A DNA stretch of 64,000 nt from NCBI GenBank assembly GCA_976551045.1, contig CDPCPM010000012.1, positions 682,001-746,000 of the forward strand, written 5' to 3'. The notes under the pieces were generated by a model. The model did not search any database. It had not been told where the DNA came from and saw nothing but the letters and a program-made list of their open reading frames with translations. Source of the DNA: Glaucostegus cemiculus (lineage: Eukaryota). Position 1 is the first letter of the stretch; the number at the start of each line of letters is the position of its first letter. This document shows, piece by piece, positions 1,613 through 19,624 of this stretch. Position numbers and translations under genes: made by a program.

Positions 1613-4239
1613 GCCATTTGTTATGGATCATTCAGGAATATGACTCTAGGAGCTGATTACACAAAGTATCGACTTTTCTTGACATCTAATAATTTGTATT
1701 TCAATTTATTATGAGTACAGGTACAATGCTGGTATCTTATAATGTAGCAAAATCATTTACCTTGAATGCTCACAGTTCATACTCTGTATGATGAATATAA
1801 GCTGCAAGCATCAGACTGGTAGAGGCTGCACCAAATAAAAAGTAATAACCCTGACCGGTGAGACCTGGAAATGACCGTCCAGTGGGATGTTGATGTTATT
1901 GGAGAAAACAACGATCTGGTTTATGAAAAATTGGGGCCAATACAACTCTTTAAATAATGATTTTGTGCCATTGCTTCACTAATAATATGGTGGCCATGCA
2001 ACCCTGACAGTATGGTTGTGCCACTGGTTGTAAGATGGATAAGGATTTCCATGTTCTGTGATGTTATGGTCCTGATACCACTGCAGATTATGGGGCCAAA
2101 TAACTTAAATACTGAAAGCAGTGAAGCAGTGAAGCCTGTAACCTAATCTATAATGCATCAGGATTGCTGGAATAGTTTAAAGGGAAAATGTGATCACAAG
2201 AAGGAGCAAGCAATCCAGGCAAAGTAGAATAATACACAATGGTTGAGCAGAAAGCCTCTGAGAGTATGGCATGGATAGAGGTGGATCAGGATGCTGATAT
2301 CCTTGGGTTTAGTGGCAGGTGACCTGCCTAGCTTGCCAACCACATTCTGCAGGAACAGCCCAGGTAAGTGACCTGCTCCTCCTACATTTTCTTGCAGTCT
2401 TTTTACATATGATGTAATATTTTTGTTCAGTAGCTTATTGTGCTGTACAACTGTGCTCTGAATTCTTCTGTGTTCTGTATCCTCTGAACATAAAAGTGAC
2501 ATCTTCTCTTGCAGTATGCCAAACCTGACTAATTTGCATCGACTCTCAATACAATCCTTTCTTCCAAAAACCTTGCATGTAAAGCTATTGCCAGCTTCAC
2601 TGCAAATCACATGCTCTTTCTGGCCTTCACATGTGAAGCTAGATTGTAATCATCAAAAGATTTCAAGGCATGGTTTTGTGATCACTTTGACTTCACTGAC
2701 AACAAACCTGAAACCCTGCTAAGGATATTATCTTGGAGATTCTGGGAGAGCAATCACCCTGTCCTTTTGCAGATGGAGACTTAGGATAGCCGCAGGTTTG
2801 TCTGGATCATATTTGCTTTGTGGCTTGCCTGTACACTTGGGTTTGGGAGCACAAGCAAACTGGGACCTGCAGTAGCTGTAGACGAACTATTATGGTATCA
2901 CCTAATGGTACAGATTTCCTTCTTTATCGTTTCTCTTGAAACACACAAAGCTTGATGCCAGTGAAGAGAAGGAAACAACAATTGCATTTCCACCTTTGAT
3001 TGGCCAGTTACATTCCCACTTCTGTGATCTCATTTAACCAGAAAGGAATTGCCTCCAATAACATGAAAGTATCCAGTCAGCAGTCAACTTTTCTGATTCT
3101 GTTGTGCATATTTGAATGGATATAACGTCTGCTGTTTTTGGTGTGATTCAATTTCTAGCCTTTTATTAAACAATAATACTTCTTGTCCTAAAATGACTGC
3201 AAATGACTCGCTTTTTGCAACTATGAATATGCTGACACCCTCTGCTCATTCTGGGGCTTTCCATTTCCACTGAGAAGCCCCAAACTGAGAAGGAGCAGGA
3301 GGAGAATAAAACCTGTTTCTTGGCACAGTAGTGTTCAACTCAGCATCATTTACAGCATTTGTAGCATACAACAGCTCAGGCACAGGCATTCAAGAGGGCC
3401 TTTAGTGACTTGGCAGAGGGAACCTGGGGTGAATCACACATCACTGGCACAGGGACAGAGTGAGGCTGAAGAAGGCTGGCTGTTGTTGAGAGTAGAGTAT
3501 TTTATAATTCACACATTCTTATTGCAAGGCACAACTACAGAAGGTTTAAAGGACAAAGATACATTTGATATTTCTGATTTACAAGTCAGAGGAATATGGA
3601 ATTTCTCACAGGTTTTATCAGTTATGTTTGGTGTCAGTATTCCTCATTTCCCCAGAACAAATCTTGCAATTGCCTTCCCCATTTAAGATTCTGGTGATGT
3701 GCCTGACTCCATGAGGAATCTGTCCGTCATAACAGTGCTTAGAAAATGAGCATTCAAATGGTGTATTTTTTTCCCACAGTGACTTCATTGCATTTGAGTG
3801 TTTATACCTCCTTCTATTAATAAAAATTGCATGAAAGCAATGTGCGTATAGGCAATGGTATTTTAGGAAATGCGACACAACACACACAATTGTGTCTGCT
3901 TTCTCAGTTGGAACCTACTTCTAGTGTTCATGTTAATGTATGCTGTTGAATGCTCAAATTAGGTACCTGTTATTGACTTGATAGAAATATAACAGCCAAT
4001 TTTATAAACCCACATTCTTGGCATGGATTCTCTCCAGCCAAGGCTACATACCAGGAAATTGATGGAATATGCACATTATTTCCTAATATTTGGCCCAAAC
4101 AGGTAAAACTTTGTGTTTTTGTAAAATTGTCTGATCCCGGGGGTATTTTCAGCTGGAGGCTAGAAGGATCCAATGTTGTGGAGGTTCAGTGTAGTGGAGA
4201 CTTTGGATTCAGTTGACAGTGAAAGCCAGATGATGCCTG

Positions 4240-17303: not shown

Positions 17304-17483
17304 TTACCTGTTCTCATACACATCATTGCTCCTCTGTAGGATCATAAGCTGATAAGGACTAGCCCTGCTCCGCAGAAGCTTATCCTTTGTCAGACAGAAA
17401 CGTTGCTGTGCCGATAGTGGAAGTGATGGATAAATATGCGACTGAAGACCATCCAGCTGGCTGGCAACTGGCAATGGCAGGGT
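17304..17483 (-). CDS. CADPS: Candidate alternative CADPS terminal exon (59 aa TLPLPVASQLDG...SNDVYENR*), or 176-nt frameshifting cassette 17308-17483
   Basis: Branch-like ctgac and pyrimidine tract then taag|ACC, phase 0 matching the upstream exon; open frame with several retained CpGs; ends AAC AG|G TAA AG, so the stop overlaps a donor-like site. Confidence 0.5.
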   Translation of the reverse strand, partial: TLPLPVASQLDGLQSHIYPSLPLSAQQRFCLTKDKLLRSRASPYQLMILQRSNDVYENR

Positions 17484-18991
17484 CTTAATGGGGTGCAGGG
17501 AATGGTCAGAATAAAGTAAATATTTTAAAAGATGCATTCAGGAAGTTTATTGCAACACAATTGAAGAAAATGGCATATTGTCTAGACATTAGACAGAATC
17601 AGCCAACATAACAATTGACTCATCATTGAACTCTTTAGCTATCAGTTTAACTCAACACCAAAACTGGCAATTTCCATACTCCAATAGTCATAGAAAGTGA
17701 GTCATTTGGTTGGTTTGATTATGCCTTCAATGTCAACCAAATGGATGATATTTTCCCCATTTCTTACAACCTTTAAGTTTCCTGTTAGGCATCCATGCAT
17801 AGAGCATTGAGAGCTCATAATGTGCTTTATGCATGTATGAAACAATCTTGTAGATATGGGCCATGATAGTAGATGTACACAGCAAGATTATTTGACTGAA
17901 AATCGTGCCACTTGATACAATGTGACAAAACACTGGATGTGAGAGATAAGTTTCATTTTAATTATTGGAAAACGGATGAAAGGGAAGAGATGGAAAGCAA
18001 TTAGAAAACAATGAAGGAAAGGAAAGAAATTTGTCAACAGAAATGAGACAGTTGACAGAACCTTATGAAAGCATGAGCAAAGATAACAGAATAACGCACC
18101 ACCACAATACAAAGCCCTCAATTAAATATTTTTACAAAATAACACTTGGAACAGAAACTGAAATAATTTAAACATTTTTGTAAACAATCTTAATGATATA
18201 ATACAATACTTTGATGGAAAGTCCTCTTATGAAATGATTTTCTTTAAATCTACACTTTGTTAAAACCTCACCAAATTCATCAGCCCTATAAAAGAGCAGC
18301 AATAGAAATGGGTTATAAAATAAGAAACAAAATCTATGTACACACTACAAATACAAAATGAAAGAAAGCATTGCTGTACCAAGCAGTACAAAGGACAAAA
18401 CTAAATAATCCACACCTATTCTAACTAAATGCATGAATGCAATGAATCTTGTTAATAAATGTGGTTGAAAGTAGTTCACAGCAAATAATAAACTTAGCCA
18501 CAGTTTATATGTTATATGTTGACATTTACTGCCTGATAGTTCCTATAGTGAGGGTTCATGAGAATATTTAGTTTCCATTCCATTCCACTATTGTATTTTA
18601 TGTTATTGAAGGACAAAAATGTATACCTAATAGTTTCAGAGAGAATAAAAGCAGCAGCTAATTTTTTACATCCTGTGTGGACTGGGAAGAATACTGTTCC
18701 ATCTCTTATAAAGGTTGCTCATAGACATGAGCTAACAAAACCTGCTCATAAGAAGGCACTGTGACAGAAGTCACATGCAGACAGACCAGGAGCTGATGCA
18801 ACATATATGGTAGACTACAGTGCAGAGTCAGAACAGAGAGAGGCAGAGAGGAGCCTGAGTCAGAGGAACAGAAAAGATCTGAACAGCCACTGAATTTCTC
18901 TCAAAATGTGACTTATCCCTCTTTCTTTCGTATTGTCACATTTTGGATAGTCTCCTCCCTGACCAGCAAGGAGGAGAAGGCATTTACTTAC

Positions 18992-19099
18992 ATCAAATAA
19001 CCTTTCTATATACATCTCCTCATTGACCTTGTCACGCAGGATATCCTGACTCTGGCGCACAAAGGTCACGTAAGCATCTGCCAAATCCATTCCAGGTTT
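18992..19099 (-). CDS. CADPS: CADPS exon, 108 nt: [36 protein letters not shown]
   Basis: ttcttaccag|AAA ... GAT|gtaagt, phase 0-0, matches vertebrate CAPS1. Confidence 0.97.
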
Positions 19100-19624
19100 C
19101 TGGTAAGAAAAAGAGAAATATAACATCACATGAGATGACTGGCTTTTTAAAAAAAAGTTAAGTGTTAAGCTCATCAATGAATTCTAAAAGTAAGTGTTTC
19201 TGCACTAGCCGAACTGTATGCAGTTTATCGAAATGCAATTGAGGATTCTGATGCTAGTTGGCATATTGCTAAAGCAAAGACATTTTAATGCTGTAATGAC
19301 TTAAATTGACACAAAGCTGTATCCAGCTATTTAATCTCAAAGAAATCAGTATCTCTATAATTATTTCTAAATTACAAAGAACATTCTTTTGGCATGCTTT
19401 ATCTAATCTCTTTTCTCTGTGTAAATATATACCTATCATATCCATTTCTTGTTTTTACACCTTTTACTATAAATTACGCATAATTGTAAATGGTGTATTC
19501 CCAATAGTTTATGGTCCAAATAGTCCTAGTCCACATTCTATTACTTTTTGGATCAATGCAAGGTATATCCTTCACTCTACATTACCATCAAGTAGGGGAC
19601 CAAACGGAGTTCAGTGAGAAAAGT

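Follow-up and report, generated by a model that had tools for sequence, protein, structure and literature searches.

Two intronic hairpins behind the edited CADPS exon of Glaucostegus cemiculus as probable parts of one conserved long-range RNA structure

The CADPS Editing Exon and Its Recoding Site

The window analyzed here is a 64-kb stretch of Glaucostegus cemiculus DNA in which CADPS (CAPS1) is a minus-strand gene. A protein search with the upstream CADPS exon 35914-35828 as query gave 3091 matches, and the named proteins among the 120 listed were CAPS1, a few rows being hypothetical proteins. The 36 residues encoded by exon 19099-18992 were identical in 11 of these 120 listed matches, and the eight shown were shark CAPS1. 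The next constitutive CADPS exon is located 30,176 nt downstream, the two being separated by a 30-kb intron.

18992-19099, minus strand: CADPS (CAPS1) coding exon with the E/G editing site, 108 nt (translation and protein matches)
19020, minus strand: adenosine of a GAG codon, ortholog of the E/G recoding site in CAPS1, 28 nt from the exon 3' end

The human CADPS editing exon also comprises 108 nt, and its E/G site (chr3:62423807) lies 28 nt before the exon 3' end (PMC6724681 supplement). A sequence-only reading of this DNA had proposed an edited exon with its site at A19020, which agrees with the human exon in length, offset, and codon, and the CAPS1 protein matches identify the same gene. 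By orthology, A19020 is presumably edited in Glaucostegus cemiculus as well. Editing of the CAPS1 E/G site has been reported for human, mouse, rat, cow, opossum, and zebrafish (sources including the accessible text of bioRxiv 10.1101/178202), with levels in mouse of 23.5% in cortex and 9.2% in cerebellum according to the same text. On the minus strand, the exon frame runs on without a stop through the donor, from 19099 to about 18850 (107 residues), so that intron retention would append a short tail.

Two Hairpins Behind the Donor

Both hairpins that had been described behind the donor are present with exactly the coordinates and sequences given for them, the first with an 11-bp stem and the second with a perfect 11-bp stem.

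18951-18977, minus strand: hairpin 1, 11 bp including one G-U, loop of 5 nt, 5' arm 18977-18967; predicted side arm of a three-way junction
18902-18945, minus strand: hairpin 2, stem 18945-18935 with 18912-18902 and a 22-nt loop; predicted early fold whose arms and purine-rich loop re-pair with a distal block (folding, conservation in a second species)

The minimum-energy fold of 18880-19100 contains both hairpins (z -2.72), and only 2 of 200 shuffled sequences were as stable. On the minus strand of the window we counted eight hairpins with at least 11 bp, at most one G-U, and a loop of up to 30 nt; hairpins 1 and 2 are among them and lie 5 nt apart. The other six, all intronic and with 11-13 bp, are located at 61768-61741, 55893-55860, 45668-45639, 20503-20463, 10826-10795, and 7769-7745. 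A scan of 17700-18960 against Rfam gave a single match, to the greA leader, with 26 bits at a cut-off of 60, which was taken as chance.

Hairpin 1 has a 5' arm that is able to pair across A19020. On the window's minus strand, the segment 18977-18967 alone matches 19025-19015 with 10 or more Watson-Crick pairs out of 11, and we roughly estimate the chance of such a match so near the editing site at about 0.01, for a register picked post hoc. Ranked by energy, the hairpin 1 arm is the 12th of 3792 windows as partner of the 21-nt site. Hairpin 1 and pairing of the arm with the exon site exclude each other in silico, as had been proposed, because both use the same 5' arm.

An Orthologous Locus in a Second Vertebrate

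A pattern scan of metagenome contigs revealed one orthologous locus, here called L003, in another vertebrate, which is probably an amniote because its exon peptide equals a mammalian CAPS1 match. No further orthologs were found in the prokaryote and viral contigs. When 19300-16500 was compared with L003, only two long blocks aligned: a proximal block (19102-18887; 83.8% over 216 nt, E 1.6e-60) and a distal block (17962-17830; 84.3% over 134 nt, E 1.2e-36). Behind hairpin 2, a weaker pyrimidine-rich similarity to L003 extends over 18880-18775; no conserved pairing partner was found for it, and it possibly represents protein-binding sites.

Both hairpins occur in L003. All 11 pairs of hairpin 2 are unchanged, and in hairpin 1 nine pairs are unchanged, one shows a one-sided change (G-U to A-U), and one is broken. 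The 5' arm of hairpin 1 has no changes at its 11 positions and the 3' arm has two at 11, a difference that is not significant; all five loop letters differ. The arm ranks 4th of 496 windows in L003 as partner of the 21-nt site.

A paralogous exon, L002 (G000:C49:5617372-5617479), has 83% protein identity and the same GAG codon and probably belongs to CADPS2. Within the 1.5 kb compared there, no conserved blocks were found, and the best exon partner reaches -22.6 kcal/mol.

The Predicted Editing Complementary Sequence Lies in the Distal Block

The sequence-only reading had taken 18977-18967 as the candidate editing-site complementary sequence (ECS). In our first scan of 947 intron windows the proximal window did rank first as exon partner, with -33.8 kcal/mol versus -33.3 for a distal one, and the duplex near 17.9 kb was far more regular than the proximal one. 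Full folding gave -39.4 kcal/mol for the distal exon:ECS duplex and -22.1 kcal/mol for the proximal exon:intron duplex, and 17896-17859 was the best exon partner among 1893 windows (mean -12.5, standard deviation 3.5 kcal/mol). In the full pre-mRNA fold the proximal pairing has a probability of 0.0, and imposing it on a transcript that includes the distal block requires 18.4 kcal/mol here and 24.6 kcal/mol in L003. The proximal exon:intron duplex had also been regarded as editable; the model gives it about 7+3 pairs at the site, which is probably too short.

17859-17896, minus strand: ECS, pairing with the exon 3' end in 13-bp and 12-bp helices and then in a looser 10-pair stretch over A19020 (folding, L003)

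According to the computation, 17896-17859 is a conserved intronic complement that forms a long imperfect duplex of 35 pairs over the site, and all 25 core pairs are unchanged in L003. The distance from the exon site to the ECS is 1154 nt. In mouse, the CAPS1 ECS was mapped about 1.5 kb into the intron, where its mutation abolishes editing and a compensatory mutation restores it (accessible text of bioRxiv 10.1101/178202). Table S11 of PMC4053846 contains an unnamed human row in which a complement is predicted 1470 nt downstream of the editing site; we assigned this row to CADPS by position. Against a distal ECS stands PMC6724681, in which the human CADPS ECS was classed as exonic by prediction. 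Because 17896-17859 is the best exon partner, is conserved in L003, and has a position consistent with the mouse mapping, our folding models identify it, and not 18977-18967, as the ECS.

Pairing at A19020 itself is loose (about 0.45). The base opposite the edited A is U at 17866 here and G at position 3716 in L003, where the edited-site A is mostly unpaired (0.62) or shifted to U3714. This difference could lead to different editing levels between the species.

A Predicted Extension of the Editing Duplex into a Long-Range Rod

About 1.3 kb of each species, folded independently, gave the same helices in the same architecture. From the exon outward, this predicted rod consists of the exon:ECS helices, an internal loop with the donor, a helix of 4-5 pairs, a three-way junction, and the extension helices.

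18986-18991, minus strand: 5' splice site, predicted in an internal loop of the rod (folding)
18979-18982, minus strand: junction helix, 5' strand, pairing with 17909-17906 (4 bp, P 0.97)
17906-17909, minus strand: junction helix, 3' strand (folding, L003)
17919-17961, minus strand: distal scaffold block, 32 pairs with the hairpin 2 region (folding, L003)

Around the donor, exon positions -3 to -1 are paired with P of at least 0.98, +1 and +2 are mostly open, and +3 to +6 are paired with P 0.54-0.82. The junction helix has five pairs in L003, and its four pairs found here are unchanged there. Hairpin 1 is present at the three-way junction alongside the editing duplex with P 0.95. Thus, of the editing switch that had been proposed, the competition between local folds was reproduced; sequestration of the ECS by hairpin 1 was not, the hairpin and the editing duplex being predicted to coexist.

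What the sequence-only reading overlooked is that both arms of hairpin 2 are predicted to pair with the conserved distal block. The extension consists of three helices of 13, 11, and 8 pairs, in which the two arms of hairpin 2 and its loop take part with P 0.93-1.0 (17961-17954 with 18908-18901, 17951-17941 with 18921-18911, and 17932-17919 with 18942-18929). The block adjoining the ECS was the best partner of the hairpin 2 region among 1882 windows here and 235 windows in L003, in collinear order, and two-strand folds lacking the long loop gave the same helices at 10-41°C. Forcing hairpin 2 costs 11.8 kcal/mol here and 12.1 kcal/mol in L003. The truly mutually exclusive folds are therefore predicted to be hairpin 2 and the rod. 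Since the exon:ECS duplex is equally stable when hairpin 2 is forced (P 1.0), the extension is thermodynamically dispensable for that duplex.

The two blocks conserved in L003 coincide with the two strands of the rod, and the distal one is longer than an ECS requires. Intronic changes relative to L003 affect 9 of the 129 positions paired in the rod or in hairpin 1 and 22 of the 54 unpaired ones (Fisher p 1.6e-7). Third codon positions are identical to L003 in 13/13 cases in the paired exon part and in 12/23 upstream; the corresponding figures for the paralog are 9/13 and 12/23. Among the 32 extension pairs there are two one-sided changes, no two-sided change, and three pairs scored as broken, partly through register shifts. 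In this comparison of two species the hairpin pairs are mostly kept and no helix contains a two-sided compensatory change; the covariation that had been suggested as a check is thus not demonstrated.

Folding Order and the Role of the Hairpins

Folding of nascent transcripts of increasing length gave hairpin 2 a probability of 0.96-1.0 up to an end at 17935, 0.26 at 17925, and at most 0.02 at 17900 and beyond; these are equilibrium calculations and not kinetics, so that hairpin 2 could be trapped. The rod reaches 0.97 between 17935 and 17900, when the ECS is still absent, and the ECS helices follow by 17880-17870. In L003, hairpin 2 likewise gives way to the rod between 3645 and 3670. The distal block alone folds weakly (-4.1 kcal/mol here, -2.2 in L003), hairpin 2 alone has -12.6 and -12.7 kcal/mol, respectively, and the duplex of the hairpin 2 loop with the distal block has -11.9 and -13.0 kcal/mol.

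We consider it probable from these models that both hairpins are parts of one conserved long-range editing structure, with hairpin 1 as a permanent side arm and hairpin 2 as a temporary fold. In the early transcript, hairpin 2 would be closed with its purine-rich loop exposed, and hairpin 1 would compete with the short exon:intron duplex, which is probably too short for editing. Once its partner block has been transcribed about 1 kb later, hairpin 2 would open: the emerging, nearly unstructured distal block would likely bind the loop, forming a pseudoknot, and displace the stem. Loop-initiated invasion is suggested by the distal block being nearly unstructured and complementary to the hairpin 2 loop. 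Zipping toward the exon via the junction helix would then deliver the ECS, and the resulting 35-pair duplex would let ADAR edit A19020 while the 30-kb intron is still in place. The 32-pair extension might act as a stabilizer or as a landing stem for ADAR, with the donor sitting in the internal loop. The folding order and all effects of the hairpins on editing and splicing are our inference from the models.

Antisense kissing complexes are known for loop-initiated strand displacement. The predicted invasion of an exposed-loop hairpin by a complementary, weakly folded strand resembles them; the CADPS case differs in that it would be intramolecular, in a vertebrate intron, and timed by transcription. 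A stronger version, a transcription-timed switch kept from sharks to amniotes in which hairpin 2 is the landing pad invaded by the distal block and hairpin 1 removes a decoy, is a tentative proposal to which we give roughly one chance in four. If it were true, the extent of E/G editing in CAPS1 would be set by how fast the polymerase moves, by temperature, or by proteins that bind the loop.

A simpler reading accepts the extension as real and treats hairpin 2 as a by-product of the rod sequence or a relic, with no intermediate role. It is in line with the rod's stability advantage of about 12 kcal/mol in each species and with the stem of hairpin 2, of whose 22 nucleotides 17 are paired in the rod and thus already constrained. 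However, a rod does not require that a strand be self-complementary; the distal strand no longer has the corresponding self-complementarity, and the five hairpin 2 stem positions that the rod leaves unpaired have all been kept (0/5 changed; p 0.09, or 0.054 relative to proximal unpaired positions). This is a hint, not proof, that hairpin 2 was selected in its own right, and we regard the static reading as rather unlikely.

A little less likely still is that the proximal arm has been conserved as a competitor, locking the exon in a form that cannot be edited and from which hairpin 1 releases it, the balance leading to the partial editing in vivo. The decoy and hairpin 1 are nearly equal here (0.42-0.58) at all five intermediate transcript lengths from 18700 to 17940, and in L003 both changes fall on the 3' arm, one hairpin pair being broken there with the exon pairing kept. 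In L003, however, the decoy stays at or below 0.02 at six lengths between 2675 and 3645 and reaches 0.6 at a single later one, the balance is strongly sensitive to the folding window, and the arm is not exceptional energetically, given its ranks in the two species. Under the favored structure with two hairpins of different roles, the proximal exon complement may serve as a short-lived decoy or be left over from an earlier ECS. We also considered and rejected a switch by temperature from decoy to hairpin 1 or back: its direction and size depended on the window, and no shift occurred at 10-41°C with the distal block present.

The original switch, in which 18977-18967 is the ECS and its sequestration by hairpin 1 turns editing off, appears very improbable. 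The segment is the only complement of its quality to the 11-mer around A19020 in the window and is unchanged in L003. Partition-function folding of short windows favored the exon:intron duplex or hairpin 1 depending on the window ends, and the proximal duplex won with P 0.92-1.0 in 4 of 7; the distal fold wins when its block is included, by the energies given above. The conservation of the two strands is not independent support, each being under constraint on other grounds, and the mouse minigene contains the proximal intron, yet mutation of the distal element abolishes editing (accessible text of bioRxiv 10.1101/178202). Equally improbable is that the proximal block is kept for protein binding or splice-site strength and that the local hairpins never meet the distal block, which would fit the CU-rich arm directly behind the donor and the partnerless pyrimidine-rich conserved stretch to about 18775 but leaves the conserved, collinear, complementary block 17961-17919 unexplained.

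Relation to Known Editing Substrates

The CAPS1 E/G site and its distal ECS are already known. The CAPS1/CADPS substrate described in the accessible text of bioRxiv 10.1101/178202 and, via citing papers, by Miyake et al. (2016) shares the gene, exon length, and codon with the locus studied here and likewise has an intronic ECS more than 1 kb downstream, at about 1.5 kb in mouse versus 1154 nt here. The published CAPS1 text accessible to us describes a small exon:intron duplex and does not mention a 32-pair extension, a side-arm hairpin, or hairpin 2. We found no description of the extension or the hairpins in the searchable literature on CAPS1/CADPS editing and long-range pairing, which includes the accessible parts of PMC10404624, PMC8096273, PMC7075269, PMC5192505, PMC6071210, and PMC8052449; a prior description elsewhere is possible. 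CADPS has no entry in five supplements of the PCCR paper, which possibly do not include its full catalogue.

The rod resembles two described types of substrate, in neither of which its membership is established. Sites 1-3 of Drosophila paralytic combine an ECS, a sequence complementary to the donor site (DCS), and an intronic hairpin, i.e., an editing duplex up to the donor, intronic pairing past it, and a hairpin in the substrate (PMC4299485, accessible text). In the CADPS rod, by contrast, the donor is only weakly paired, and that text describes no counterpart of hairpin 2. A conserved docking loop of the paralytic type is absent from hairpin 1, the unconserved loop of which makes a sequence-specific loop pseudoknot unlikely. 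Editing inducer elements (EIEs) are likewise conserved intronic stems next to an edited stem, with an internal loop between (PMC5654063, accessible text). In both species, 32 pairs are predicted on the far side of the donor loop and the junction, a number within the 25-54 pairs listed for EIE stems in Table 1 of that paper. The EIE sites in the accessible text are, however, mostly edited to at least 50%, versus about 20% for CAPS1 in mouse brain, and CADPS is absent from its main text as far as accessible. The CADPS stem also differs in joining blocks 1 kb apart and in having an alternative local fold.

CAPS1 E/G recoding alters vesicle release, and its editing is partial and region-dependent. 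The extension, the side arm, and the hairpin 2 switch are thus named as candidate cis-elements for the editing level, and if conserved in mouse they would lie within the minigene published for that species, which spans exon 27 and about 1.7 kb of intron. If confirmed, the structure would be a vertebrate counterpart of the multi-element paralytic substrate of the fly and an example of recoding governed by the folding order over a kilobase.

A Candidate Exon Downstream and an Amphibian Cassette

The sequence-only reading had further suggested that the fold might influence use of an exon at 17483. The candidate 17483-17308 shows 59 open codons behind a plausible acceptor and is single-copy in the genome. 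It was rejected as an alternative exon: no protein matched it among 71 candidates, no Pfam match was found, none of the 112 proteins containing the edited exon continues into it, and its best matches in L003 have E values of 0.14 and 0.37. A frame of this length arises often by chance, an equally long one being opened by 37 of the 1181 AGs in the window's part of the intron. The weaker L003 match, 3996-4052, lies about as far behind the ECS as the 17483 frame does and resembles the beginning of that frame (47% identity over 19 residues, E 0.37); it has no acceptor AG and was taken as chance.

A 16-residue cassette directly follows the edited exon in 49 of the 112 proteins, which are amphibian entries where checked. 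In the window and 50 kb beyond, this cassette was not found; the best scores were 26 and 27, none of these with exon borders. In 98 of the 112 proteins, I replaces M two codons past the edited codon, within the ECS-paired stretch, which suggests that the duplex has been remodeled in amphibians.
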